Shown here piece after piece: positions 30,965 to 49,971 of a stretch of 64,000 nt of DNA (the first letter of the stretch is position 1; the number at the start of each line of letters is the position of its first letter). The position numbers and the translations under genes are program-made. Origin of the DNA: Chloroflexota bacterium (GTDB taxonomy: Bacteria; Chloroflexota; Ktedonobacteria; Ktedonobacterales; JADMIN01); contig JAKAIY010000001.1 in assembly GCA_021814145.1 (NCBI GenBank), positions 18,094 to 82,093 of the forward strand, in the 5' to 3' direction. The notes beneath the pieces are model-generated. The model made no database searches. It saw only the letters and a list, made by a program, of their open reading frames with translations, and was not told the origin of the DNA.

Positions 30965-31371
30965 ATGTCGCGACTTCACGACGAGGTTTGTATTCCTTCT
31001 TCCTTCCTCTCATACGACCCACGCCCATCCGGCTGCGCGATGTGAAAGCGTGTAAGCGTATAATGGAGGATGTGTTTGCACACCGCGCTGACATCATCTA
31101 TCTCGAAGATTTACGGATCGCCACCATGGTACGGAACCGGCGCCTAGCCAAGAGCATCAGTGATGCGGGCTGGGCGCAATTCCGTTCCATCCTCGAAGCC
31201 AAGGCAGTATGCGCCGGGCATCGGGTTGTCGCTGTACCCGCCCAGTACACCAGCCAGGATTGTAGCGGCTGTGGAACGCGCATTCCCAAATCTTTGAGCG
31301 TAGGCGCCCATGTCTGTCCCTCATGTGAGCTGGTCTTGGACCGCGACGAGAACGCGGCGCGCAACATCTAA
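30965..31371 (+). pseudogene. tnpB: TnpB (IS200/IS605-family OrfB) C-terminal remnant
   Basis: ADIIYLEDLRIATMVRNRRLAKSISDAGWAQFRSILEAKA...AQYTSQDCSGCGTRIPKSLSVGAHVCPSCELVLDRDENAARNI contains the RuvC-II/III and zinc-ribbon region of TnpB. The N-terminal part of the protein (very roughly 250 aa) is missing, and the sequence upstream of about 31050 is degenerate or frameshifted. Confidence 0.8.
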
Positions 31372-31466
31372 TGGGCCGGGCAGGCCCTTCGGGGAGTCGT
31401 GGCGTAGGCTACGGCGTCGAACCGAGAATCCGCCGGGCTTCAGCCCGTGCGGAGTGTCAACAACTT
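31372..31466 (+). mobile_element. IS605/IS1341-type right end (omega-RNA scaffold 3' portion)
   Basis: Hairpins GGGCC-gggca-GGCCC and CCGCCGGGC-ttca-GCCCGTGCGG, followed by AGTGTCAAC. The ...GAATCCnCCGGG..CCCG..GGAG.GTCAAC pattern resembles right ends of TnpB elements as I recall them. The exact terminus is uncertain. Confidence 0.55.
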
Positions 31467-31484
31467 GGTCCGTCATCTATCCGC

Positions 31485-32435
31485 ATGTTCACCTTACAGG
31501 AGTCACTTGTGACCAACCACACCACGCTGCCAGAACTGGGCGAGGCGCTCGCGCCTGAGCGTTGCTTCATGCATCTGGACGCTGAATACACCGACTTTGA
31601 CACGGCGCGGGTCGTTATCGCCTCGGTCCCGTTCGATGGCACGACCTGCTACCAGCCCGGCACGCGCGAGGGGCCGCGGGCCATCATTGACGCCTCGCGT
31701 AATCTGGAAGTTTACGACACTGAGCTCCGGCGCTCGCCCTATCGTGTTGGCATCCATACCCTGCGCGCGGTGGAGATTGTCAATGGCGACGCGGAAGCGA
31801 TGGCCAATCGCACGGAGCTTGTAACCGGGGCGCTGCTTGACCGGGGAAAGTTCGTCGTGACGCTTGGCGGTGATCACATGATCTCGATAGGCGTCATCCG
31901 CGCGTTCGCCCGCCGCTATTCCGGCATGAGCGTCCTGCAGTTCGACGCCCACGCTGACTTGCGCAACGAGTATGAGGGAGCGACGCATGGCGCGGCCACT
32001 ATCATGCGACGCGTCCTGGATGTCTGCCCGCGTACCGCGCAGGTTGGCATCCGCAGTTTCAGCGAGCCTGAGGCGGAGCTTGTGGCGGAGCGCAATTTGC
32101 CCATGTGGCTCGCCGCGGACATTCACGGGCGCCAGACACGCGGCGACCGGGGATGGATCGCGGAGGTGGTCAACGCGCTCTCAGACGAGGTCTATGTCAC
32201 CTTCGATGTTGACGCCTTCGATCCATCGCTGCTCCCCGGCACAGGCACGCCTGAGCCCGGTGGGCTTGGCTGGTATGACGCCATGGACCTGCTGACGGAG
32301 GTCGCGCGCAGCAAGACGATCATTGGCTGTGATGTCGTTGAGCTTTCGCCACTCCAGGAAAGCCACACGAGCCCGGTGATCGCCGCGAAGCTGGTCTATA
32401 AGCTCATCGGCCTGGCGACTCAAGAGCGCTCCTGA
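31485..32435 (+). CDS. speB: agmatinase (arginase/ureohydrolase family)
   Basis: GGDHMISIGVIRAF, LQFDAHADLRNEY and VYVTFDVDAFDPSLLPGTGTPEPGGL are Mn-binding ureohydrolase motifs. Start placed at ATG 31485. The track ORF from 31371 reads through the IS right end. Confidence 0.9.
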   Translation: MFTLQESLVTNHTTLPELGEALAPERCFMHLDAEYTDFDTARVVIASVPFDGTTCYQPGTREGPRAIIDASRNLEVYDTELRRSPYRVGIHTLRAVEIVNGDAEAMANRTELVTGALLDRGKFVVTLGGDHMISIGVIRAFARRYSGMSVLQFDAHADLRNEYEGATHGAATIMRRVLDVCPRTAQVGIRSFSEPEAELVAERNLPMWLAADIHGRQTRGDRGWIAEVVNALSDEVYVTFDVDAFDPSLLPGTGTPEPGGLGWYDAMDLLTEVARSKTIIGCDVVELSPLQESHTSPVIAAKLVYKLIGLATQERS

Positions 32436-35820: not shown

Positions 35821-36942
35821 ATGGCATCAGGGCGTTTGTTGCAGCCAAAACCTATACCTGCGGAGTTAAGTGTCGCCGATCTGGTAGATCAATTTTTCTT
35901 CGCCTACAACGCCGCGCGCTTGAGTGAAGCCTGCCAGCTCATGACCCAGAAGGTGCTGCGTCCCAATGTAACCGTGGGCTTGACCCTCTCGGGCGCGCTC
36001 ACGCCCGCCGGGCTGGGCTACGCGGCGATTGTGCCCCTCATCGAGGCGGGCTTTGTTGACTGGATCGTCTCCACGGGCGCGAATCTCTATCATGATATGC
36101 ACCGCTCACTTGGGCATCAGCTCTATCAGGCCGGCCCCGTCTTTGACGATCTGGCGCTGCATCGCGAGAAAGTGGTGCGCATCTATGACATCGTGTTTGA
36201 TTACGATGTGCTGCTCCAGACAGACGCCTTCCTGTATCGCTGCCTCGAGTCGCCTGAATTCCAGCGGCGTATGAGCACCTCGGAACTGCACTACCGGCTG
36301 GGCGCCTACACCCTGGAGCGGGAGCGGGCGCTGGGCCTACCATACCGCTCAGTGCTCTCCGCCGCGCACCTCGCGGACGTGCCCGTCTATACATCAAGTC
36401 CGGGGGACTCGACGATTGGCATGAACATCGCCGCGTTGCGCGCCAACGGGTATGAGGTGGGCTGTGACACCGAGGCGGATGTCATTGAGACCACCGCGAT
36501 CGTTTATAACGCCAAGCGTGATGGCGGCGAAAGCGCGGTCATCGTCTTTGGCGGCGGCAGCCCCAAGAACTTCGCCCTCCAGACTGAGCCGCAGCTTCAG
36601 GAGGTGCTGGGCGTCGAGGAGAAAGGGCACGACTACTTCGTGCAATTCACCGACGCCCGACCGGATACAGGTGGCCTTTCGGGCGCCACACCTAGCGAGG
36701 CGGTGACGTGGGGTAAGGTTGACCCGGAGATGCTGCCCAATGCCGTCGTCGCCTACGTTGATAGCACCATCGCGCTGCCTATCATGACTTCCTACGTGCT
36801 CGCCCGCTGCGAGAAGCGCACGCCCAAGCGGCTCTATCAGCGGCGCGCGGATCTGGTAGAGTCGCTGCTGAGCGTCTACCGGGCGAAGTGGGCTGAAGTG
36901 AAGCCACGCGAACAGCCCAAGAAGTCGCACAATCCCCTGTAG
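35821..36942 (+). CDS. deoxyhypusine synthase-like protein (possible homospermidine synthase)
   Basis: [23 protein letters not shown] and [24 protein letters not shown] resemble the DHS family NAD/spermidine-site regions. Confidence 0.8.
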
Positions 36943-38350: not shown

Positions 38351-39229
38351 TCAGCTCTCTTCATCCCGTCCCGCAAGCGCTTTTTGCCGGCGCTTGCTTC
38401 CGCCACGCATGTAATCGTAGCCGAAACGGCCCTTGACGCAGAGGAAGCCATGCGTCACCGAATTCTCGCGAGGCGAGGACACCTTGACGATCTGGTTGTC
38501 CTGCACATGCAGGTCCAGCTCACACCCCACACCGCAGTAGGAGCAGATTGTAACGACCTCCTTCTGCCGCGATTCGTCCCAGGTTCCATCACGGCGCATC
38601 TCGAACTCGGTGCGGCCCAGCAGCGCGCCTGTGGGGCAGACCGCCACGCAGTTGCCGCAATAGACGCACGGTGACTCTCCTAGCGGGACGTCGAATCCGG
38701 TGTCAATGTGCGCGCCGAAGCCGCGACCGGCGGCCGTGAGCGCGAACGTATGCTGCACATCCGAGCCGCACGCCTCGACGCATTTGTAGCAGAGGATGCA
38801 CCGCGCATAGTCGCGCACATAGAGCCAGTTGTCCGAATCCCGCGGTGGCTGCTCGACGGTAGCGCCTCCGTAGCGGTCCGGCTGGGCGTCGTAACGCGGC
38901 GCGAATTTCCCGATAGTCGCCGCCAGGCTGGTATCCACTGACGACTGGAGAAGCTCGATCACGCCCTTGCGCGCCCGACGCACCCGTGGCGAATCCGTGA
39001 GCACCTCCATGCCATTCTCCGCGGCGCGCGAGCACGAAGGGGTCAATACGCGGCTTCCCTTCAGCTCCACCACACAGACCCGGCATGCGCTAGGCTGGGT
39101 GAGGCTGGGATCAAAGCAGAGCGTCGGCGTCTCGATACCCAACGCTGTGATGGCGTCCAGCAAGGTCGCTCCAGATGGAACCGTGACTTGCTGGCCATCA
39201 ACCGTCAACGTTACCTGCTCAGGCATCAT
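38351..39229 (-). CDS. formate dehydrogenase alpha subunit, N-terminal Fe-S module only (NuoG-like 2Fe-2S and 4Fe-4S domains plus the molybdopterin-type 4Fe-4S domain)
   Basis: VTLTVDGQQVTVPSGATLLDAI...CRVCVVEL (2Fe-2S), CILCYKCVEAC and CVYCGNCVAVCPTGAL (4Fe-4S), and TICSYCGVGCELDLHV...LCVKGRFGYDYM (Mo-bisPGD N-terminal cluster). The ORF then stops after a 17-aa basic tail. Confidence 0.85.
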   Translation of the reverse strand: MMPEQVTLTVDGQQVTVPSGATLLDAITALGIETPTLCFDPSLTQPSACRVCVVELKGSRVLTPSCSRAAENGMEVLTDSPRVRRARKGVIELLQSSVDTSLAATIGKFAPRYDAQPDRYGGATVEQPPRDSDNWLYVRDYARCILCYKCVEACGSDVQHTFALTAAGRGFGAHIDTGFDVPLGESPCVYCGNCVAVCPTGALLGRTEFEMRRDGTWDESRQKEVVTICSYCGVGCELDLHVQDNQIVKVSSPRENSVTHGFLCVKGRFGYDYMRGGSKRRQKALAGRDEES

Positions 39230-40472
39230 GACCTCCCACGCCCGCTGGCAGCGGGAATGTGTTGAGGGCGCTCAGGACGGCGCTCGATGCGGTCTGCCCC
39301 AATCCACAGATTGAAGCGTCTGTCATTACCGCTCCAAGTTCCCGCAGCAGCGCGACATCGCCAGGGCGGCTTTCACCCGCCGTCATGCGCTCCAGAATCT
39401 CCATTTGCCGTTGGGTGCCAACACGGCACGGCACGCACTGGCCGCACGACTCCTCGGCGAAGAACTCGGCGAGTTGCCGTGTGACATTCCACATGTCAAC
39501 GGTCTCATTGAACACGACCACTGAGCCTGCGCCGATCGTCAGCCCCAGTGGCGCCAGCGTCTCTGGCAGCAGCGGTATATCTAGGTGGCTGGACGTCATG
39601 AACGCGCCCGCCGCGCCGCCGACCAGCGCCGCTTGCAGCGAGTGGCCGCCCGCTACACCGCCTGCCAGATCAAGGAGATCACGCAGCGTGCCGCCTGTCG
39701 CCACCTCATACACACCTGGACGGGCGATATGCCCGCTCAGCGAGAAGAGCTTCGGCCCGGTGAACGCCGGGGCGCCGATCTGGGCGTAGGCGTCACCACC
39801 CATGCGCACGATATGCGGCACGTTCGCCATGGTTTCCACGTTGTTGATGACCGTGGGCAGGTAGAACGCCCCGGATGTGACCGGGAACGGGGGTTTCATG
39901 CGTGGCTCGCCGCGCCGGCCTTCCAGTGAGTTGAACAGCGCCGTCTCTTCGCCGCAGATATAGGCGCCGCCACCCCGTCGCACCTCAATATCGAATGGCT
40001 GCCCTGAGCCCAGCACACTCGCGCCGAGATAGCCGCGAGCGCGCGCCGCTTCTACCGCCGCCTGGAAGCGGCGCGCCGCGAGCGCGTATTCGCCTCTGAT
40101 ATAGGCGTAGCCCTGCGCGCTGCCGATCGCCAGCCCCGCGATGGCCATCGCTTCCACCAGCGCGAAAGGATCCTCTTCGAGCAGTTTGCGGTCTTTGAAC
40201 GCGCCCGGCTCGCTTTCGTCCGCGTTGAGCACGACATATTTCCGGGCGCCCGGAGCGGCGCGCACCGTCGCCCATTTGCGCCCCATCGGGAAAAGCGCGC
40301 CGCCACGTCCCAGCAGCCGTGAGCGCGTCACCTGGTCTATCGTCCACTCGGGGCCAGCTTCCACCGCATGGCGGAGCGCCGTGAAGCCGTCCCGCGCCTC
40401 GTAGTCTGTGATACTGTCGGGATCCACCACACCGCAGCGGGCGAGCAGCAAATTAAGCGTCTGCGCGGCCAT
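39219..40472 (-). CDS. NADH dehydrogenase subunit F-like (FdsB-type NAD/FMN-binding subunit)
   Basis: GRGGALFPMGRKW, GGGAYICGEETALFNSLEGRRGEPR and ESCGQCVPCRVGT are NuoF motifs. It overlaps both neighbouring genes by 11 to 20 nt. Confidence 0.9.
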   Translation of the reverse strand: MAAQTLNLLLARCGVVDPDSITDYEARDGFTALRHAVEAGPEWTIDQVTRSRLLGRGGALFPMGRKWATVRAAPGARKYVVLNADESEPGAFKDRKLLEEDPFALVEAMAIAGLAIGSAQGYAYIRGEYALAARRFQAAVEAARARGYLGASVLGSGQPFDIEVRRGGGAYICGEETALFNSLEGRRGEPRMKPPFPVTSGAFYLPTVINNVETMANVPHIVRMGGDAYAQIGAPAFTGPKLFSLSGHIARPGVYEVATGGTLRDLLDLAGGVAGGHSLQAALVGGAAGAFMTSSHLDIPLLPETLAPLGLTIGAGSVVVFNETVDMWNVTRQLAEFFAEESCGQCVPCRVGTQRQMEILERMTAGESRPGDVALLRELGAVMTDASICGLGQTASSAVLSALNTFPLPAGVGGHDA

Positions 40473-41025
40473 GCGCCGCCTCCTTCACGATGGATTCCAG
40501 CCGCTCAGGCGTTACATCGCGCGCCGCCTCTTCCCCAACCAGCAGCGCTGGCGCGTGATCGCACTGGCCGAGGCAGGCGAACCACTCCCATTTCACCTGG
40601 CCATCCGCCGCGGGCTCTCCCGGTCCAGCGCCCGTGAGCTCCGTCATCCGCTGTCCCAGCTCTTTCGCGCCTTGCAGTTGGCACACTACACCCCGGCAGA
40701 CGCGAATCATCCCACGGGTTGCGGGCTGGGTCGAGAGCAGGGCATAGAATGTCATGACCCCATACAGGTCAGCGTAGGGAATGTGGAGCCGCTGGCTGAG
40801 GTAACGGGTCATCTCTTTCGAGAGCCAGCCAGTTTCCGCCTGGACATCGCGCAACAACGGGAGTAGTTGATCTCGCGAGAAGCGCGGATAGCGTGGATAC
40901 CGTGACAACACAAGGTCAGCGGCCCGCCGTTCTTCCTCTGACGGCTGCGCCAGGGGAACCTCAGGCAAGCCAAGATCGGCGCGTGCATGGCCGTTTCCAT
41001 GTAGCAGGTTATCCGAAGCGCTCAT
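40453..41025 (-). CDS. NADH dehydrogenase subunit E-like 2Fe-2S protein (FdsG-type)
   Basis: LLPLLRDVQAETGWLSKEM, IRVCRGVVCQLQG and CLGQCDHAPALLV are NuoE-family motifs. Confidence 0.9.
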   Translation of the reverse strand: MSASDNLLHGNGHARADLGLPEVPLAQPSEEERRAADLVLSRYPRYPRFSRDQLLPLLRDVQAETGWLSKEMTRYLSQRLHIPYADLYGVMTFYALLSTQPATRGMIRVCRGVVCQLQGAKELGQRMTELTGAGPGEPAADGQVKWEWFACLGQCDHAPALLVGEEAARDVTPERLESIVKEAAHGRADA

Positions 41026-41084
41026 GAGCGTCTACACCCCTTCCTGGCGGCGCACGCGCACGCGCGCCGCCAGCGGTTCTTTAT

Positions 41085-43016
41085 TTAGTGAGCTCCTGAC
41101 ACGGCGCCACCCGTACGAACCAGCTCAATATTGATCGCCGCGGCTTTGAATTCCGCTGTGCCTGACAGCGGGTCAACCGCATGGATTGTCAACGCGTTGG
41201 TCGTTGCCTGGTCGGGGAAGTGGAACGTCAGGAACGCCAGCCCGCGATACAGGCCCTGGTTCAGGTGCGCCCGCAGCGTCACTGACCCGCGTCGCGAAGA
41301 AACGCGAACCAGCGCGCCTTCTCCAATGCCACGCTCCGCGGCGTCTTCGGGGTTGATCTCGATGAACTCCTCCTGTGGTCGCGCTGAATCATAGAGGCCT
41401 GACTGTACGCCAGTGTTAAAGAACTCCAGACGGCGCCCGGTGGTAAGGGTGATAGGGTACGCGCTATCCACCGGCTCTACCGGCGGCTCATACTCCGTGG
41501 GCTTGAACGGAGCCGGCGCTCCAATCAACGGGTCTTCCCATAGCCGCGAGTACATAAACCGCTCGCCTGGATGCTGCTCATCATAGCAGGGCCACTGCAA
41601 GCCGTGGCTCTCTTCCAGACGCTTGTAGCTCATGCCCGCGTGGATCGGCGAGAGAGAGCGCAGCTCGTCCCAGATCTGCTCGGCAGATGTATAGTTCCAG
41701 CGCGCGCCCATGTGGTTCGCGAGATCCTGGAGAATTTGCCAGTCGTCGCGCGCCTCGCCGGGAGGATCCAGCGCCTTGCGGCAAAGCTGCACACGGCGCT
41801 CGCTGCTGGTGACTGTGCCTTCCGTCTCAGCCCAGGAGGCCGCCCCGGGAAGAACGACATCCGCCAGCTCGGCGGTTTGCTGCATCAGGATGTCCTGGAC
41901 CACGATGAAGTCCAGACCCCGCAGCAGCCGCTCCAGGTGGTTCGCGTCAGCGTCGGAGGCGAGTGGGTTCTCGCCAAGGACGTACAGCGCGCGCATCTCC
42001 CCGCGTTCCATCGCCGCGAGCATGGCGGACTGGTTCCAGCCGCGCTTGGGGGGGATGGTCACACCCCACGCGCGCTCGAACTTGCCGCGTAATTCGTCGT
42101 TCTCGACGTGCTGGAAGCCCGGCAGCCGGTCGGGCAGCGCGCCCATGTCACCGCCGCCCTGCACGTTGTTCTGGCCGCGCAGCGGATTGAGACCACAGCC
42201 AGGGCGTCCAACTTTACCGGTTAGCAGCCCCAGATTGATCAGCGCCAGGACGTTATCTGTGGCGTTGTGATGCTCCGTGATGCCCAGTGTCCAGCAGATT
42301 ATTCCGGTGCGCGCGCGAGCGAAGTCCCGCGCCACCGAGCGGATCTTGGCGGCTGGTATGCCGGTGATTTCCTCAGCGTATTCCGGCGTATAGCGCGCTA
42401 CGACGCGCTTGTAGTCCTCGAACCCCGTCGTCGCGTGTTCGATGAACCAGGACTGATGCAAGCCCTCCTCGATGATGACGTGACCCATCGCGTTCGCGAG
42501 CGCGATATCCGCGCCCACACGAATCTGAAGCCAATCGTGAGCGGCTTCAACCGAGAGTGTCCTGCGGGGATCAACGACGACCATGCGGGCGCCATTCTCG
42601 ATGCCCTTGAGCATATGCAGGAACATGACCGGATGGGTTTCGCGCGCGTTCGATCCCCAGAGGAGGAGGTAATCTGTCTCCTCCATGTCAGTGTAAGAAC
42701 TGGTGCCACCACCGCTGCCGAAGACTGCCGCCAGACCGGCGACGCTGGGAGCGTGTCAGGTACGGTTACAGCTATCAATGTTGTTGCTCGACAACACCGA
42801 CCGCATGAACTTCTCCGCGACAAAGTTGGTTTCATTTGTCGCCTTGGAGCAACTGAAGAAGCCAATCGCCGAGCCGCCATATTGCGCCTTGATACTGCCA
42901 AGACGCTCAGCGACGACGCTGAGGGCTTCGTCCCAGCTTGCGGGCTGAAGCTGTCCGTCCTTACGAACCAGAGGCGTCGTGAGCCGGGCGGCGCGCTGCG
43001 CTACCTGCGTTGCCAC
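41085..43016 (-). CDS. fdhA: formate dehydrogenase alpha subunit, molybdopterin catalytic body, selenocysteine-containing (in-frame UGA at 42756..42758)
   Basis: The track ORFs 42756..43016 and 41085..42686 are one reading frame joined through TGA: ...NNIDSCNRT-U-HAPSVAGLAAVFGSGGGTSSYTDMEETDYLLLWGSNARETHPV... This is the Sec/Cys-His active-site signature of formate dehydrogenases. GTG start at 43016 with GGAGAGGAG upstream. Confidence 0.85.
42727..42758 (-). promoter_or_regulatory. UGA(Sec) codon plus SECIS-like hairpin
   Basis: UGA CACGCUCCCAGC GUCGCC-GGUCU-GGCGGC. A 6-bp stem (one G-U pair) with a GGUCU loop starts 12 nt after the UGA. Confidence 0.6.
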
Positions 43017-43354
43017 GAGAATCGCTCCTCTCCATCAACAAGCGTCTTCGTTGCGGTCACATCCAGTGGCCTCGTTCTGGGAAGCGTGTCCAGCCAACCG
43101 CTGTGATGGTCTGGAGCGCTCGCTCCCCGCTGTTCGTGTATTACGCCGTGGGCGTAAAGCAAGTGAGCGCACTACCAGATACTCAAGAGGAAACTGTAAA
43201 TATCATATCACGATATCTCGCGTTCGCGCATCGTGTATCTTGCGGAAGATCAGGCGGTGAGACGCGCGTTTTTTCCCACAAGAATTCAGTCCAAGATATA
43301 CTGTCGTCACGGCGTTCATGGCAGGCATGCGCTGGCATGAAGAAAGGGACTCAA

Positions 43355-44665: not shown

Positions 44666-46171
44666 ATGGGCGCGTATTGGGGAGGGCGAATGATGCGAGA
44701 GCCAGCGGAGGCGGGATCAGCGCTGGATGGGAGCGCGCGCGCTCAGCCAAGCCACGCCATTATCCTGGGATGGCGCGGACGCGACCTGACTGTTACCCCA
44801 CCCGCCGACCTGCTCCCGCTCGATGACGCCGCCCTGGCGGACGCGCTCTTCGGTCCGCGCGCCATGTCGCTGGCGCCTCGCCTGCTGCGCGACCGTCGCG
44901 GGCGCTTCTTTCGCGCGCGTCCCATGGACTATGAAGCGCTGCGGGGCGCGCTGCTCGCCCAGGCCGCCGCGCCACTACAGACAGCTTTCGACCCACGCCC
45001 CGCGCTGCCATTCACGCCGCGCCCCACGCTGGAGCCACGCCCTTACCAGACCGAGGCGCTGACCGCCTGGCGCGCCGGGGGTGGGCGTGGTGTGGTGACG
45101 CTTCCCACTGGCGCGGGCAAGACCTACCTCGGCGCGCTGGCCATCGCTGATACGGGCTTGTGGACGCTGGTTGTCGCGCCAACGATTGACCTGCTCGGCC
45201 AGTGGAAACGCGCGATGGCGGAGGCGCTGGCCGCGCCGCCGGAGATGGTTGGCGTCTACGGTGGCGGCGCGCGTGAGATCGCTCCAATCACCATCATCAC
45301 CTACGATTCGGCGCTGCTGCGGCCTGAATTGCTCTGGCGCTTCGGCCTGCTGATCTTTGACGAGTGTCACCACCTGCCCGCGCAGACCTATCGCCAGATC
45401 GCCGAAGGCGCGTTCACGCCGCTGCGCCTGGGACTCAGCGCCACGCCGGAGCGCGCAGACCTGCTGCACATTGATCTGGACCAGCTCATCGGCCCTGAGG
45501 TCTACCGCGCTGATCCTGAATCGCTCTCCGCTGACCACTATCTTGCCGGATTCCAGGTTGAGCGCGTCACCGTCACGCTCACACCCGACGAGCGCGCCCG
45601 CTACGACGCCGCCCGCGAGACGTACCGCGACTTCGTGCGCCGCCGTCATCTCACCATCGCTTCGCCCGCCGACTTCCAGCGCAAGATTCTCTGGGCCAGC
45701 GCCCGCGATCCCGAAGCCAGAGCGGCGATGCTCGCCTGGCGTGAAGCCCGCGCGCTCGCGCTGGACGCGACCGCCAAACTGGCGCTGCTGGAGGATATTC
45801 TCACCCGCCATCACGACGAGCGGGTGCTGATCTTCAGCGAGTACAATGCGCTCGTCACGGAGATCAGCCAGCGCTTCGTGATGCCCAGCGTCACCTATCT
45901 CACGCCCGCTTCCGAGCGCCGCGCGATCCTGGAGGGATTCCGCGCGGGCCGCTTTACCAAGCTCGTTTCCGGGCGTGTGCTCAATGAAGGCGTGGATATC
46001 CCTGATTGCGGGGTCGCGGTCATCGTCAGCGGCAACGCCACGCCTCGCGAGTATATCCAGCGCCTGGGGCGTATCCTGCGTCCCAAGGCCACCAGCGCCA
46101 CGCTCTATGAACTGGTCACCGAAGACACTACCGAGGAGCGCGCGTCCACCCAGCGCAGGAGGCGAGGTTAA
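44666..46171 (+). CDS. XPB/Ssl2 (ERCC3)-like SF2 DNA helicase/translocase
   Basis: PRPYQTEALTAW, TLPTGAGKTYLG (motif I), LLIFDECHHLPA (II) and LGLSATPERADLLHIDLDQLIGPEVYRA. The last stretch aligns with my recollection of human XPB [28 protein letters not shown]. Also RLGRILRPK (VI). Confidence 0.88.
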   Translation: MGAYWGGRMMREPAEAGSALDGSARAQPSHAIILGWRGRDLTVTPPADLLPLDDAALADALFGPRAMSLAPRLLRDRRGRFFRARPMDYEALRGALLAQAAAPLQTAFDPRPALPFTPRPTLEPRPYQTEALTAWRAGGGRGVVTLPTGAGKTYLGALAIADTGLWTLVVAPTIDLLGQWKRAMAEALAAPPEMVGVYGGGAREIAPITIITYDSALLRPELLWRFGLLIFDECHHLPAQTYRQIAEGAFTPLRLGLSATPERADLLHIDLDQLIGPEVYRADPESLSADHYLAGFQVERVTVTLTPDERARYDAARETYRDFVRRRHLTIASPADFQRKILWASARDPEARAAMLAWREARALALDATAKLALLEDILTRHHDERVLIFSEYNALVTEISQRFVMPSVTYLTPASERRAILEGFRAGRFTKLVSGRVLNEGVDIPDCGVAVIVSGNATPREYIQRLGRILRPKATSATLYELVTEDTTEERASTQRRRRG

Positions 46172-46172
46172 G

Positions 46173-48242
46173 ATGCGGCTTGCGCTCGCTGATATTCCCA
46201 AGCGATTTACCCGGCGCGATGGATTGGTCAGCGTCACGCCGCGGCTGCTGCGCCCCCGCGAGGCGCGCGACGCGCTGGCGGCGCTCATCGGCCTGTACGA
46301 GGCGTCACAGGGCCTCGCCCGCGCGGATTTTCCCGACGACCGGCCTGCCCAGATCACGGGTGATATCCGTATGGCCCGCTGCCTGAGCGCTTGCCTGGGC
46401 GACTGGTATCAGTGGACCAGCGAGCCGTGGCCACAACCAGCCACGCCCGGCGAAGCGGCGGCGCTGGCGCTCCATGGAATAGACAGCCCCGGCGCGCTGC
46501 GGCTCGCGCTCTACGACCACGTCAACGCCGCGCACGGCGGCTTTCTCAGCGCCGCCACGCGCGAGTCCACCCTTGGAGCTTTCGCCGCCAGCCTGAGCCT
46601 TTCGCGCGCTACCTTTGACGCCCTGCTCGCCCATGACGATCCGCGCGCCGCCCGGCTCATCCGCCTGAGCGCCGCGCCGCCCACGCCCGCTGAGCTGGCC
46701 GCGCGCTACAATCAGCGCGCCGTTGAGGCCCTGCTGGCCAGCGCGTCTGAGGTCAGCTGGCGGATCGCGCCGCGCGATGGCGTAAGCCTCGGCGCGACCG
46801 TCAAGCGTGTCTGCTTCCTGGCCCGCCGGATGGGGGTGAGCTACGAGGTCACATGTGATGACGCCGGGCGCCCAGACGCGCGCATGGTCGCCGAGCGCGT
46901 TGGACAGTATGCCGCCCCGACCACGCTGGAGCGTGCGCGGCTGCCTGTGGTTATCACACTGCACGGCCCGCGCGAGATGATGGGCGCCGCTAACCAGTAT
47001 GGCGACCGGCTGGCGCGCCTCTGCCGCGCTCTGCTCGGCTACCGCCGTGATCTTCCCAGCGCGGCGGCGCTCGGTGATGTCGTGGCGCTCTCCGGCGTAG
47101 CGACCATCCATTTCCACGGGCGCCCATGTCTGTTCGCGCTCGATGAGCGGCTGGCCCGGCTGCTCCGCGTGAAAGCCGGGGAGGGCGCCGCAAACCAGGA
47201 CGACTCAGACGCCGTCGCGTTCGATTCCGCGCTAGAGCGGCGGCTGCACGCTGACTTCGCCGCGCTGGAGCGTGCGGGCGAGACAGCGGGCTGGCGGCTG
47301 GAACGTGAGCCAGAGCCGATCATCCTTGGCGACACGATTCTTGTGCCCGATTTTGCCCTGACGCGCGAAAACCGCCGCGTCTACCTGGAAGTGGCCGGAT
47401 TTTGGCGTCCTGACTATCGCGCGCGCAAGGCGCGCAAGCTCGCCATGCTGCGCGGCGCGGTCGCGCTGGTCGTCGCCGCGCCCGAAGAGGCCCGATCCGA
47501 GTTCGTGGGTCTCGACGCAGGCTATCCTTTCCTCTGGTATCGGGGTGACGCCATCAGCGCGCCAGCCCTGGTCGGCGCCATCGAGCGCGCCTATGATGAT
47601 TTCCCCGAACGCCTCGCCGCGCTCGACTTCCCGCGCCTGCTGGCTGAAGTCGAGCGCCGCGGCGTCATCCCAACCACCGAGGCCGCGGCCGCCCTGCGCG
47701 GCTACACCCGCGCCGAGCTCTCCCGCGCCGTCCAGGCGCTCGCTGACTACGCCGCCAGCCAGGGCGCCGCCGCGCCGGAATGGCTGGATAGCCTCGGCCT
47801 CTGCGCGCCGGCTACGCTCGAACGCCTCGCGGTGGCAGCCCGCGCAAGCGTGATGGATGCGGGTGGCAGGCTTGCGATGAGCGCGCTGGCCGCGCTGCTG
47901 GCGGCGTCGCAGGCGCCCCTGAGCGAGGCGGCGGTCGAGACGCTGGCCCAGCGTGCGGGGATGTGTATCGAGCGCGCGTCGCTCTTCTCCGCCGAGGTGG
48001 TCATACCCGGCGAAGCGCGCTCCGAGAGCGCGGAAGCAGGCGCACAGCCTGATCCGGCCATCCATGACCTGCCCCGAAAAGCGCAACCGCGCAAGCTGGT
48101 GCGGCGTACACACACTGGCGCCAAGTGGAGGTGGAGCGCGGAAACACTGTTTCCCGCTGAATCCCCCTCCGCTGGAAACGGATCTGGGCCGGACGCCTCA
48201 CCACCCCCTCCGCGTGGCGAAACCTGCCATCAGACCAAGTAG
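46173..48242 (+). CDS. Bax1-like DUF790 endonuclease with a long C-terminal extension
   Basis: ATG at 46173 lies 1 nt after the XPB stop, with AGGAGG upstream. ILVPDFALTRENRRVYLEVAGFWRPDYRARKARKL matches the PD-(D/E)xK core I recall for DUF790/Bax1 (..PDF....Y.E..GFW...Y..K). Family call is from memory of the motif only. Confidence 0.72.
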   Translation: MRLALADIPKRFTRRDGLVSVTPRLLRPREARDALAALIGLYEASQGLARADFPDDRPAQITGDIRMARCLSACLGDWYQWTSEPWPQPATPGEAAALALHGIDSPGALRLALYDHVNAAHGGFLSAATRESTLGAFAASLSLSRATFDALLAHDDPRAARLIRLSAAPPTPAELAARYNQRAVEALLASASEVSWRIAPRDGVSLGATVKRVCFLARRMGVSYEVTCDDAGRPDARMVAERVGQYAAPTTLERARLPVVITLHGPREMMGAANQYGDRLARLCRALLGYRRDLPSAAALGDVVALSGVATIHFHGRPCLFALDERLARLLRVKAGEGAANQDDSDAVAFDSALERRLHADFAALERAGETAGWRLEREPEPIILGDTILVPDFALTRENRRVYLEVAGFWRPDYRARKARKLAMLRGAVALVVAAPEEARSEFVGLDAGYPFLWYRGDAISAPALVGAIERAYDDFPERLAALDFPRLLAEVERRGVIPTTEAAAALRGYTRAELSRAVQALADYAASQGAAAPEWLDSLGLCAPATLERLAVAARASVMDAGGRLAMSALAALLAASQAPLSEAAVETLAQRAGMCIERASLFSAEVVIPGEARSESAEAGAQPDPAIHDLPRKAQPRKLVRRTHTGAKWRWSAETLFPAESPSAGNGSGPDASPPPPRGETCHQTK

Positions 48243-48279
48243 CATTCCCCATAGTTATTCCCAGTTCGGGAGGCATGTC

Positions 48280-49971
48280 ATGGCCGATGACGATGAGCGA
48301 AACAACGGCGATGGCGCGACACCATCGCAAGAACCCGTTGATCTGAGCTCTCGACGGCAGCAACGTCAGCGCGAGCGCGCTGGAGACGATTTCGGAAGCG
48401 CCTCCCACGCCAGATGGAGTGGCGAAGATTACTGGAGCGACAGCGCTGACGAACTGGAGGAGCAGGCGCGTGAGATGGTGCGCGCCATTCGCGAGAACGC
48501 TGGCGAGCTGGGCGAGCGTGTGCGGCAGGCTGTCGCGCATGCGCGCGAATTGTGGGAAGAATCCGCGGGCGTGGACAAGCCAATCTTCGATGACCCCCAT
48601 CCCGATGAGCCACGCGCCCGCGCGTTGATGCGCCGTTGGGTCAAGCGCGACTTCCTGGTGGACCCCGACCTGCCCACTTCGATGTCGGTCATCGCCTTGC
48701 GCGATTCGGAAGTCTGGCGTGTCGAGTTGCGCGAGCGCGGCGAGACCCGCTCGCTCGCCGAATCCATTGACCCCTACACCGGCGTTCGCCCGCCAGAGCC
48801 TGGGCCTATTCTGCCCCTCTGGGATTACTCCTTCCCCGCCGCGCCCGACATCGAGGCCGGCGAGCGCCGTGAGCGGCTCGCCGGTGGCGCTATGCTCGGA
48901 ACCTGTGAGCGCTGTCATGGATCTGGCAGGCGCGCGTGTCCCCATTGCGCGGGCAAGGGCTTTGTCACCTGCCCGGAGTGCCGTGGCCGGGGCCGCAAAA
49001 TATGCCCGCGCTGCCGTGGCCGGGGCCGCATCGCCGACGCCGCCGCCGAGCGCCGCGCCCGCGCCGCCAAGAGTTACTTCCAGGTCCATGCCGAGCGGCT
49101 GGCGCAGAACGCTGTTGAGCGCCTCGCCGACCTCTCCGAGCGGCTCCGCCAGGACTACGGCGCGCCGCTTCCGCCTTCCGCGCAATGGGCGCCCACCGCT
49201 CCCGCCTCAGGTGAGACCATCCCGTGCCCTGACTGTAAGGAGGGAACCATCGCCTGCTCCTGTAATCAGGGGAAGCTTACCTGCCCGGTATGTCATGGAA
49301 CTGAGCTCGACACCTGCCCGGTGTGTCATGGCGCGGGCAAAGTCATCCGCTATCAGGAGATCGCGCGCCGCTTTGACACGCGCATCCGCACCCGCCTCGC
49401 GCCGCCTTCAGATCCAGCCGAAATCGTCGGGATCACCGAGAACATGTTGCGCAGCGTGGCTGGTGAAACCGTTTGGGAAGGTCCCGCCAGCGACCTGGAA
49501 GGCCCTCCGCCAGAAGGCGCGCCGTCCCATGTCTGGCAGGCCGCTCTGGAATTGAAGCGGATTGATGACGAGGAAAGCGCGCGCGCGCAGGCTACCCCCA
49601 GCCCCGCGGGCGAGCGGCGCGCGCTCTGGCGCCGCGCCACCCTCATGCGCGCGCCCATTACGCGCCTCGAATACGCCTATGCTGGCCGCGCCTACGAGGT
49701 CATCGCGATTGGCCGCAGCGGTGAGGAACGATTCTGGGCGGAGTCCTTCCCGCCGCGCTGGCACCGCGTCACGCGCTTCTTCCAGGCTGTCGCGCGCGAT
49801 CTCAATGGTGACGCCTTTCAGCGCCCGCGCGCCCGCTACACTGAGGAGCGCCCAACAATCGCGCGCATTCCGATAGAGACGGGCGACCAGGAGACGGACG
49901 CCCAGGCCCCAAGCGCCGTAAATGGCGCGGACGGCGTGAACCCGGCTTCAAGTGAGCGAGACCAGGAATAA
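48280..49971 (+). CDS. hypothetical protein with two DnaJ-CR-like zinc-finger modules (4 CxxC motifs each)
   Basis: CERCHGSGRRACPHCAGKGFVTCPECRGRGRKICPRCRGRG and CPDCKEGTIACSCNQGKLTCPVCHGTELDTCPVCHGAG. Acidic N-terminus. Start placed at ATG 48280 (GGGAGG upstream). The track ORF from 47953 overlaps the Bax1-like gene. Confidence 0.75.
   Translation: MADDDERNNGDGATPSQEPVDLSSRRQQRQRERAGDDFGSASHARWSGEDYWSDSADELEEQAREMVRAIRENAGELGERVRQAVAHARELWEESAGVDKPIFDDPHPDEPRARALMRRWVKRDFLVDPDLPTSMSVIALRDSEVWRVELRERGETRSLAESIDPYTGVRPPEPGPILPLWDYSFPAAPDIEAGERRERLAGGAMLGTCERCHGSGRRACPHCAGKGFVTCPECRGRGRKICPRCRGRGRIADAAAERRARAAKSYFQVHAERLAQNAVERLADLSERLRQDYGAPLPPSAQWAPTAPASGETIPCPDCKEGTIACSCNQGKLTCPVCHGTELDTCPVCHGAGKVIRYQEIARRFDTRIRTRLAPPSDPAEIVGITENMLRSVAGETVWEGPASDLEGPPPEGAPSHVWQAALELKRIDDEESARAQATPSPAGERRALWRRATLMRAPITRLEYAYAGRAYEVIAIGRSGEERFWAESFPPRWHRVTRFFQAVARDLNGDAFQRPRARYTEERPTIARIPIETGDQETDAQAPSAVNGADGVNPASSERDQE

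Follow-up and report, generated by a model that had tools for sequence, protein, structure and literature searches.

The DNA analysed here comes from a Chloroflexota bacterium (Ktedonobacterales, JADMIN01; assembly GCA_021814145.1, contig JAKAIY010000001.1), and by the window we mean the whole stretch of 64,000 nt. On its minus strand, from 43016 to 38351, the open reading frames and their translations define four genes, which encode in this order a catalytic body, a NuoE-like subunit, a NuoF-like subunit and an Fe-S protein. The features of the locus are as follows.

43025..43033, minus strand: Shine-Dalgarno-like GGAGAGGAG (inspection of the sequence upstream of the C-piece)
41085..43016, minus strand: catalytic body, the C-piece of the formate dehydrogenase alpha subunit (ORF, translation, Pfam, TIGR01591, FdsA alignment)
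42756..42758, minus strand: in-frame TGA, codon 87, read as selenocysteine (codon in the translation; alignment of related loci)
42727..42743, minus strand: SECIS-like hairpin GUCGCC-GGUCU-GGCGGC (conservation and consensus fold)
40453..41025, minus strand: NuoE/FdsG-like subunit, 190 aa (PF01257; nuoE_fam; formate dehydrogenase subunit gamma)
39219..40472, minus strand: NuoF/FdsB-like subunit, 417 aa (PF01512, SLBB, PF10589; nuoF_fam; PDB matches)
38351..39229, minus strand: Fe-S piece of alpha, the N-piece, 292 aa (domain and profile matches, FdsA alignment, motif positions)

Judged from its sequence, the locus is an intact four-gene operon for a Sec-containing, NAD-linked formate dehydrogenase whose alpha subunit is naturally split and whose gene order is swapped. 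The C-piece starts with GTG, with GGAGAGGAG lying 8 nt 5′ of it, and its reading frame is closed upstream by an in-frame TGA (43037..43035) seven codons away. There is a 20-nt overlap between the NuoF-like start and the NuoE-like stop, and the ATG of the N-piece (39229) overlaps the NuoF-like stop (39221..39219), such that start and stop codons overlap across the last three genes in the window. An earlier note on this DNA had described the GTG start with its upstream element, the in-frame stop and the overlapping ATG, and all of these are present in the sequence.

The C-piece is 643 aa long, counting Sec, with a mass of 70 kDa, and its Pfam matches are restricted to the Mo/W-bisPGD domains Molybdopterin (PF00384) and Molydop_binding (PF01568); the same search found no Molybdop_Fe4S4 (PF04879) on it. 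The FS0 domain is thus not on the chain that carries the bisPGD domains but on the 292-aa protein. The C-piece scores 698.5 bits against TIGR01591 (Fdh-alpha), an equivalog model in which membership is defined by a whole-protein score above the curated cut-off of 666.25, and its residues 2–630 cover model positions 44–672. The metal ligand and the conserved arginine of the class I "U/C-H ... R-G-Q" pattern are present as Sec87-His88 and Arg280-Gly-Gln; the motif classes of formate dehydrogenases have been described (PMC8808070). FdhF-type enzymes score higher against the C-piece (563–504 bits) than FdsA does (460–465 bits).

The N-piece, a 32-kDa protein, contains, by Pfam, Fer2_4, a 2x[4Fe-4S] ferredoxin domain and Molybdop_Fe4S4 (aa 223–274), and its residues 227–276 cover TIGR01591 model positions 1–50. 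It has exactly 16 cysteines and therefore four clusters: a [2Fe-2S] cluster (C38, 49, 52 and 66), two ferredoxin-type [4Fe-4S] clusters (C144, 147, 150 and 154; C188, 191, 194 and 198), and, in the Molybdop_Fe4S4 domain, the FS0 [4Fe-4S] cluster (C229, 232, 236 and 264) with K266 alongside. By alignment, K266 corresponds to the electron-relay lysine K295 of FdsA, and all 16 cysteines together with K266 are invariant in 77 homologues. The best-scoring match of the N-piece is FdsA, but it also matches the N-termini of HoxU, HydA and NuoG (HoxU model, 1.8e-38). The His-ligated cluster A4 is absent from the N-piece by Pfam (no PF10588 match): the alignment is gapped over the FdsA ligands His117 and Cys121, 124 and 130, the stretch between residues 66 and 144 contains neither Cys nor His, and in the 77-sequence alignment no Cys or His of the A4 region is invariant or close to it. 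When modelled alone with AlphaFold2, the N-piece reached a moderate mean pLDDT of 70, with the ferredoxin domain below 50.

We used Rhodobacter capsulatus FdsA (6tg9_A) as the reference for how the two pieces fit together. N-piece residues 6–274 align to FdsA residues 25–303 and C-piece residues 10–630 to FdsA residues 307–931, so the pieces abut (303/307) with neither loss nor overlap. The alignment, the domains and the profiles agree with the earlier proposal that alpha is split at the Fe-S/molybdopterin junction and permuted around the NuoE- and NuoF-like genes. The break itself is conserved, since 77/77 aligned N-pieces end 0–40 non-conserved residues past KGRFG[YWF]x[FY][VM]. In the related loci, the N-pieces stop right after the Fe4S4 domain, the C-piece frames are closed or unrelated upstream, and all cofactor ligands are invariant. 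The non-conserved C-terminal tail of our N-piece measures 18 aa after ...GYDYM, which corrects the 17 aa given previously.

The in-frame TGA of the C-piece lies in the motif "CNRT-U-HAPSV". Of 66 related loci, 58 have TGA as the aligned catalytic codon; the remaining eight, all from actinomycetes, have TGC or TGT, and Nonomuraea, Herbidospora cretacea and Streptomyces cavernae are examples of such Cys-type carriers. The hairpin downstream, whose 6-bp stem closes a 5-nt GGUCU loop, starts 12 nt past the UGA and resembles the SECIS of fdhF; it is kept in every TGA locus (58/58) and degraded in every Cys locus (8/8), and two of the six pairs in its consensus fold have compensatory changes. A catalytic in-frame UGA with Cys orthologues and a SECIS hairpin downstream of it are the marks of a bacterial selenoprotein, and the C-piece, having both, is predicted to be one. 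We found no fdhD, sel genes or tRNA-Sec, and indeed no tRNA of any kind, within the 64-kb window; hence maturation and Sec decoding depend on loci beyond it.

The NuoE-like protein has its [2Fe-2S] ligands at Cys110, 115, 151 and 155, and the NuoF-like protein, the NAD(H) and FMN subunit (443.7 bits against nuoF_fam), has those of a single [4Fe-4S] cluster at Cys343, 346, 349 and 389. As in the FdsABG type, alpha is thus encoded together with a [2Fe-2S] subunit and an FMN/NAD(H) subunit that has a single [4Fe-4S] cluster. The NuoF-like protein contains only Complex1_51K (PF01512), SLBB and NADH_4Fe-4S (PF10589), with six cysteines in all and no additional Fe-S domain, and this domain set is that of the non-bifurcating FdsB and Nqo1. 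The BfuB subunit of Bfu enzymes is defined by the added clusters B2–B5, which non-bifurcating NuoF-like subunits lack (PMC9304861). Since the NuoF-like protein is without such extra clusters, we expect the enzyme to be a formate:NAD+ oxidoreductase that does not bifurcate.

We compared the locus with 82 related loci, including L001, L002 and 80 genome loci, scoring gene order where the flank sufficed. The order of body, NuoE, NuoF and Fe-S piece holds in every related locus with enough flank, where the four genes invariably sit side by side in the same orientation; the earlier note had called for this comparison, and related genomes gave a single answer. The carriers, more than 60 genomes in all, belong to at least eight phyla, and the taxa include Chloroflexota, Eremiobacterota, Acidobacteriota, Actinomycetota, Gemmatimonadota, Planctomycetota, Dormibacterota and Binatia, with complete chromosomes (OY970335.1 and NZ_CP191982.1) and cultured Nonomuraea, Herbidospora and Streptomyces. 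Recurrence of the architecture is far beyond chance. In a rough neighbour-joining tree, built from a biased sample and carrying no support values, the split bodies fall into a single clade surrounded by single-chain proteins. Their closest single-chain relative in the sample has 45% identity and keeps PF10588 (cluster A4), and Molybdop_Fe4S4 and the catalytic domain share one chain in all full-length relatives sampled. The gene fdhD, which encodes a sulfurtransferase/chaperone, adjoins the operon in 35/82 loci and directly follows the Fe-S piece in 28/82.

The carriers are mostly aerobic soil lineages. The wide distribution, the missing A4 and the higher FdhF-type score of the body are points that the earlier note did not contain.

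We consider it probable (about 0.8) that the products of the four genes together make up one soluble, non-bifurcating formate:NAD+ oxidoreductase of the FdsABG type, with alpha made as two polypeptides, and that the fission is old and fixed. Gene callers split the C-piece into fragments of 86 and 533 aa, with the Fe-S module apart, which at first sight looks like damage to a single-chain fdhA that was recently disrupted, is decaying into a pseudogene or was assembled as a chimera. However, this fragmentation arises because of the Sec UGA, with its conserved SECIS hairpin, and independent assemblies of the identical sequence agree. The order and the break are shared by the many genomes described above, complete chromosomes included, all ligands are invariant, and the pieces abut without loss. 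We therefore regard damage or misassembly as scarcely credible, and the conserved break in 77 N-pieces, the constant order, the agreeing assemblies and the invariant ligands bear out the earlier suggestion of a stable fission. It is also very unlikely that the two pieces belong to different enzymes, with NuoE, NuoF and the Fe-S protein forming a HoxEFU-like diaphorase for another partner while the body uses a different protein. In favour of this reading, Fe-S subunits like HoxU do work with other catalytic modules, the N-termini of HoxU, HydA and NuoG are among the matches of the N-piece, and FdhF-type subunits, which the body alone resembles, have other partners. But the body is without an FS0 domain of its own and there is no second one in the window; the sole Molybdop_Fe4S4 domain and the relay lysine, both invariant, are on the N-piece, and the four genes always travel side by side in one orientation, the last three overlapping in the window.

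An electron-bifurcating enzyme of the Bfu/HylABC-FdhF2 type that also needs ferredoxin would share the separation of the pterin subunit from a NuoG-like BfuA, which is seen in Bfu Fdh types 2 and 3 (PMC9304861). The 417-aa NuoF-like subunit, with three standard domains, six cysteines and none of the BfuB clusters B2–B5, argues against bifurcation, as do the mainly aerobic soil lineages of the carriers, and we hold it to be very improbable. The split form could instead be ancestral, with single-chain FdsA derived from it by fusion: FdsA plainly consists of HoxU-like and FdhF-like modules joined together (PMC7171172), and the body is nearer by score to FdhF-type enzymes than to FdsA. Yet Molybdop_Fe4S4 travels with the catalytic chain in all full-length relatives sampled, so a pre-fusion state would break before this domain, and the break here falls after it. 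FdhF-type PDB chains likewise have about 60 residues ahead of the matched region. In addition, the split bodies are a single derived clade among single-chain proteins, and the split family has lost the A4 cluster that its nearest sampled single-chain relative retains. An ancestral split is accordingly very improbable, and we favour an old fission of alpha.

The closest known system is FdsABG(D) of Rhodobacter capsulatus and Cupriavidus necator (6tg9/6tga, 6vw7), an NAD+-dependent Mo enzyme with which the present one has in common the NuoE- and NuoF-like diaphorase subunits, the chain of bisPGD, FS0, two [4Fe-4S], [2Fe-2S], [4Fe-4S] and FMN, and the relay lysine; in both, fdhD or fdsC often follows the gene encoding the Fe-S clusters. 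There, however, a single FdsA chain comprises the HoxU-like module, FS0 and bisPGD, whereas here alpha is cut between the Fe4S4 and Mo domains and its two genes enclose the nuoE-like and nuoF-like genes. The order G, B, A becomes body (C-part of A), G, B, Fe-S piece (N-part of A). The present enzyme has no His/Cys3-ligated A4 (PF10588), which in FdsA lies at the dimer interface, so that the N-piece lacks the His-ligated cluster carried in the HoxU-like N-terminal part of FdsA. FdsA uses Cys where most split-family members use Sec, and FdsB (500 aa) has an N-terminal ferredoxin-like domain that the 417-aa NuoF-like protein does not. No FdsD was noticed among the products of the operon.

HylABC-FdhF2 of Gottschalkia acidurici and the type 2/3 Fdh-Bfu enzymes resemble the present system in having separate pterin and NuoG-like chains, NuoE/NuoF-like partners and Sec (PMC9304861), but their BfuB has extra clusters and they use ferredoxin, while the NuoF-like protein here has no such clusters. 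The FdhF-type chains of T. kivui (7qv7_S) and E. coli (1aa6) have about 60 N-terminal residues ahead of the region that matches the body, a segment which in E. coli FdhH is the Fe4S4 domain; the sole FS0 domain of the present system is on the Fe-S subunit. HoxEFU, the diaphorase of NAD+-reducing [NiFe] hydrogenases (5xf9), likewise places a small separate NuoG-N-terminal-like protein, HoxU, between the NuoF/NuoE-like and catalytic modules, but the N-piece adds a Molybdop_Fe4S4 domain and serves a bisPGD enzyme. A precedent for a Mo/W-bisPGD catalytic chain divided over two genes is FwdB/FwdD of formylmethanofuran dehydrogenase. That split detaches the C-terminal domain (FwdD), whereas the present one detaches the N-terminal Fe4S4 domain and joins it to the electron-transfer subunit.

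We infer complex formation, the electron path, NAD+ specificity and the physiological direction of the enzyme. The 643-aa body would oxidise formate at its Sec-ligated Mo/W-bisPGD site, and the 292-aa Fe-S protein would dock onto this body in trans via its own C-terminal Molybdop_Fe4S4 domain carrying Lys266 and FS0. From the pterin, electrons would reach FS0, the proximal [4Fe-4S] cluster and counterpart of A1, by way of Lys266, and then pass through the two ferredoxin-type [4Fe-4S] clusters and the [2Fe-2S] cluster of the N-piece to the NuoF-like [4Fe-4S] cluster, FMN and NAD+. Like those of FdsG and Nqo2, the NuoE-like [2Fe-2S] cluster would lie off pathway. For RcFDH, the route of the electrons has been described, with A4 off pathway at the dimer interface (PMC7171172). 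Because the FS0 cysteines and K266 are on the Fe-S piece, the earlier reasoning that electrons cross a protein–protein interface is sound.

As to origin, the position of the break after the Fe4S4 domain rather than before it indicates that the fission arose in a single-chain FdsA-like ancestor. By score, the body favours FdhF-type enzymes and the N-piece favours FdsA, and the two pieces may therefore lack a simple common FdsA ancestry. An origin by tandem duplication of fdsGBA and later terminal deletions would fit the arrangement and the place of fdhD after the Fe-S piece, which parallels that of fdsC after fdsA in the canonical order fdsGBACD; a translocation of the 3′ part of fdsA would account for both as well. 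Full-text searches of the literature found no description of a split alpha arrangement, and the split, permuted alpha, which many phyla of soil bacteria share in conserved form, appears to be undescribed. The split and the permuted order would have spread together across these phyla after the fission had occurred.

The formate dehydrogenase alpha subunit of the window is encoded as two separate pieces in a minus-strand operon, with the catalytic body first, the NuoE- and NuoF-like genes in the middle and the Fe-S part last:

43016..38351, minus strand, operon of four tightly packed genes
43016..41085, minus strand, catalytic body with a GTG start; 643 aa including a TGA codon
42758..42756, minus strand, in-frame TGA within the body, in the context NNIDSCNRT-U-HAPSVAGL
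41025..40453, minus strand, NuoE/FdsG-like gene; PF01257, four Cys
40472..39219, minus strand, NuoF/FdsB-like gene; Complex1_51K, SLBB and NADH_4Fe-4S
39229..38351, minus strand, Fe-S piece of 292 aa; Fer2_4 (aa 4–80), 2x[4Fe-4S] ferredoxin (aa 138–203) and Molybdop_Fe4S4 (aa 223–274)

GGAGAGGAG lies 8 nt before the GTG of the body, a TGA closes the same frame seven codons upstream, and the ATG of the Fe-S piece overlaps the NuoF-like stop. The body contains only the Pfam domains Molybdopterin and Molydop_binding, and a Pfam search found no Molybdop_Fe4S4 domain in it. Against TIGR01591 (formate dehydrogenase alpha; cut-off 666.25 bits) it scores 698.5 bits over model positions 44–672 only, and model positions 1–50 match aa 227–276 of the Fe-S piece. 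The catalytic motif of the body is U87-H88 together with R280-G-Q, a U-H plus RGQ pattern that marks class I (PMC8808070). The Fe-S piece has exactly 16 Cys, sufficient for one [2Fe-2S] and three [4Fe-4S] clusters; its AlphaFold2 model, built on a 77-sequence alignment, has a mean pLDDT of 70, with values below 50 in the ferredoxin domain.

When aligned to FdsA, the single-chain alpha subunit of Rhodobacter capsulatus FdsABG (6tg9_A), aa 6–274 of the Fe-S piece correspond to residues 25–303 and aa 10–630 of the body to residues 307–931. The alignment bears out the claim of an earlier note that the alpha subunit is split into two pieces that abut, with no essential segment absent or duplicated. 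That note gave the tail after GYDYM as 17 residues; it has 18. The tail following the Fe4S4 domain is not conserved and ranges from 0 to about 40 residues among homologues, and the frames of the Fe-S piece end directly after KGRFG[YWF]x[FY][VM]. Because the tails are this short and unconserved, we rejected a split intein with protein trans-splicing. The long tails computed for some high-GC actinomycetes proved to be artefacts; at the Nonomuraea locus L065, for example, the gene ends in ...GRFGYGYV* and overlaps fdhD. K266 in the FLCVKGRFG stretch of the Fe-S piece aligns with FdsA K295; in the FdhH structure the equivalent lysine has the pterin on one side and the proximal cluster on the other. 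By this alignment, the pterin-relay lysine comes from the Fe-S piece and not from the body.

Such an arrangement could reflect gene damage or a misassembly, and both are contradicted by the agreement of independent assemblies and by the recurrence of the gene order in related loci, in line with the stable fission that the earlier note inferred. The identical Fe-S piece occurs on seven contigs and the identical post-Sec part of the body on five, with like neighbours, and identical copies come from independent assemblies (ENA ERZ27237538, NCBI GCA_027399275.1 and Logan SRR13241953). A protein search with the Fe-S piece returned at least 120 clusters at 58–100% identity; all except two are 270–325 aa long, nearly all have the same domain set, and none contains a Molybdopterin domain. 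We mapped two metagenome loci and at least 80 loci from GTDB species genomes by tblastn. At every locus with sufficient flank (82 mapped), the four genes share a strand and run from the body through NuoE and NuoF to the Fe-S piece, and the best genome match to the window among those listed has 65% identity. Carriers belong to Eremiobacterota/Vulcanimicrobiota, Chloroflexota, Actinomycetota, Gemmatimonadota, Planctomycetota, Dormibacterota, Binatia and Acidobacteriota (Terriglobia, Bryobacterales, Thermoanaerobaculia and Vicinamibacterales), and they include the complete chromosomes OY970335.1 and NZ_CP191982.1 as well as cultured strains (several Nonomuraea, Herbidospora cretacea NBRC 15474 and Streptomyces cavernae). 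A search of the 64-kb window for a further FdhA-like or NuoG-like sequence found none. At one metagenome locus (L001, 4388–7958) the operon is cut into many short gene calls by frameshifts, probably long-read assembly errors, and its frames are recognisable in tblastn.

At the codon corresponding to position 87, 58 of 66 loci have TGA, and the other eight, all from Streptosporangiales or Streptomyces, have TGC or TGT. Twelve nucleotides after the UGA, the element GUCG[YC]C-GGUCU-G[RG]CG[RA]C is kept in 58/58 TGA loci. Its consensus fold is a SECIS-like hairpin of six pairs, of which two show compensatory changes, and it is similar to the apical portion of the SECIS in E. coli fdhF. The hairpin is apparent only by comparative analysis, and the minimum free energy fold of the 67 nt after the UGA in the single sequence is non-significant (z = -1.0). 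The Cys loci encode a near-identical peptide through other codons. Neither sel genes nor a tRNA-Sec were found within the 64-kb window. The cultured actinomycete carriers (L065, L027, L029, L045, L067 and L075–L077) have a catalytic Cys for Sec and have lost the hairpin, and their fdhD begins inside the final codons of the Fe-S piece or right behind them; at L065 (4211–7696, Nonomuraea sp. CA-141351) a single fusion protein of 597 aa combines NuoE and NuoF.

The Fe-S piece lacks A4, the His-ligated cluster of FdsA, a trait shared across the family. The FdsA alignment has a gap exactly at His117 and Cys121, 124 and 130, PF10588 was not matched by the Fe-S piece in Pfam, and residues 66 to 144 contain no Cys or His. 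Among 77 aligned homologues, this region has no Cys or His that is invariant or nearly so. In the R. capsulatus enzyme (RcFDH), A4 is located where the two FdsA chains of the dimer meet and is not part of the route from bisMGD to FMN (PMC7171172), and the main electron path is therefore intact without it; the enzyme of the operon probably has neither the FdsA-type dimer contact nor an electronic link between its protomers. By homology with RcFDH, formate would be oxidised at the Sec-Mo/W-bisPGD site of the body, and electrons would pass from the bisPGD to K266 and the proximal [4Fe-4S] cluster (FS0) of the Fe-S piece in trans. From FS0 they would then run through two [4Fe-4S] clusters, the [2Fe-2S] cluster, the NuoF [4Fe-4S] cluster and FMN to NAD+, with the NuoE [2Fe-2S] cluster off the path. 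The NuoF-like protein has the motifs GRGGALF and CGQCVPC...C and six Cys in total, and neither the domain search nor the Cys count revealed an additional Fe-S domain. Extra clusters in this subunit define the bifurcating Bfu enzymes (PMC9304861), so a simple formate:NAD+ oxidoreductase is predicted; complex formation, specificity and direction are what we infer.

Functionally, FdsABG(D) is the system closest to the operon, which lacks its single FdsA chain, its cluster A4 and its G-B-A gene order. The type 2/3 Bfu formate dehydrogenase (HylABC-FdhF2) also has a separate pterin subunit, but its BfuB is cluster-rich, unlike the NuoF-like protein of the operon. The FdhF-type chains inspected (T. 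kivui 7qv7_S and E. coli 1aa6) have about 60 N-terminal residues ahead of the region matching the body. FwdB/FwdD likewise has a split bisPGD chain, cut at the opposite end. None of the PDB structures matched by the operon proteins has the split form, no NCBIfam model was found for the Fe-S piece, to which sources give generic names ('2Fe-2S iron-sulfur cluster-binding protein' or 'YjgC'), and no description of the alpha split was found in the open-access full-text literature. The arrangement is widespread and structurally unusual, and the chemistry and the overall FdsABG-type logic are unchanged.

The Molybdop_Fe4S4 domain is on the catalytic chain in every full-length single-chain relative sampled. 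Since the break falls after this domain, the split form derives from a fused ancestor and does not represent a pre-fusion state. In a neighbour-joining tree (613 columns, a biased sample, no support values), the 21 split bodies form one clade, in which the window is placed with the metagenome locus L002 and a Chloroflexota MAG (L034). Of the single-chain proteins sampled, the nearest is P0243 (911 aa, 45% identity), which retains PF10588 and adjoins a GltD-like partner. In a noisy search with the 86-aa pre-Sec segment, where gene-call starts vary, identity to single-chain relatives of the Sec and Cys types reaches no more than about 53%. Alignment of the body to FdhF-type structures gives higher scores (7qv7_S, 563 bits; 1aa6, 512 bits) than alignment to FdsA (460–465 bits), whereas the best score of the Fe-S piece is to FdsA, a discrepancy that could stem from unequal rates or from a mosaic origin. 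The gene fdhD lies directly 3' of the Fe-S piece on the same strand in 28/82 loci, is convergent downstream in six, and in L002 is divergent upstream with an FmdE-like gene; it was not found near the operon in the window. In the canonical order fdsGBACD, fdsC follows fdsA, and the like position of fdhD fits duplication plus deletion as well as a translocation that moved the 3' part of fdsA.

We rejected P0249 as a colinear-split intermediate, as it is a NuoG-type protein and not a formate dehydrogenase. On its JGI metagenome contig a complex-I-type NuoG is apparently split at the same junction in colinear order: nuoF, a 277-aa Fe-S module ending in Molybdop_Fe4S4, a 4-nt overlap, and a 561-aa protein with Molybdopterin/Molydop_binding and without a Cys/Sec-His or RGQ motif. 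This split is seen on a single contig and could be a frameshift. Six other relatives are larger fusions (P0129, P0169 and P0230, about 1400 aa; P0147, P0189 and P0228, about 815–845 aa and ending at the Sec position), in which the FdhA-like region begins at about residue 270 or about 770 and more modules lie upstream of Fe4S4.

The surroundings are ordinary chromosomal genes (arginase, threonine dehydratase-like, deoxyhypusine synthase-like, UvrD, URO-D, NrdR and a divergent CMD-family gene), GC is even at about 0.61–0.70, and promoter and terminator scans gave nothing above shuffled expectation. Five neighbouring features are:

31371-32435, plus strand, arginase-family gene
35821-36942, plus strand, deoxyhypusine-synthase-family gene, a few kb from the former
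44666-46171, plus strand, XPB/ERCC3-like helicase; ResIII, Helicase_C, ERCC3_RAD25_C
46173-48242, plus strand, DUF790 protein following the helicase
47953-49971, plus strand, 672-aa ORF with a run of CxxCxGxG-type Cys motifs resembling DnaJ zinc fingers; no Pfam match found at 1e-4

The first two may serve polyamine or homospermidine metabolism, and the XPB-like and DUF790 genes resemble the archaeal-type XPB-Bax1 helicase-nuclease pair.

To our knowledge, Mo/W bisPGD enzymes generally bind the proximal [4Fe-4S] cluster with the N-terminus of the catalytic chain itself. A large natural clade is an exception, with the FS0 domain and the predicted pterin-relay lysine on an electron-transfer subunit, so that the first electron-transfer step would cross a protein-protein interface. 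The break point tolerated by evolution (FdsA residues 303/307) is a possible guide for the modular engineering of CO2-reducing formate dehydrogenases and diaphorase modules, and through the Cys-type cultured carriers (Nonomuraea, Herbidospora, Streptomyces cavernae) the enzyme is within reach without Sec machinery. Gene callers truncate the body at the Sec codon, and the enzyme is probably under-counted or misnamed when soil phyla are surveyed by metagenomics. It is conceivable, with a probability of roughly one in seven, that in aerobic soil bacteria (Acidobacteriota, Chloroflexota, Eremiobacterota, Actinomycetota and others) the main NAD+-linked formate dehydrogenase is this split Sec enzyme with FS0 in trans, so far overlooked, and that the fission is itself functional. 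If so, the pterin/Sec subunit would mature apart and then dock reversibly onto a ready-made diaphorase via the FS0 domain, and regulated assembly would be possible, for example for O2 protection or exchange of the catalytic module.
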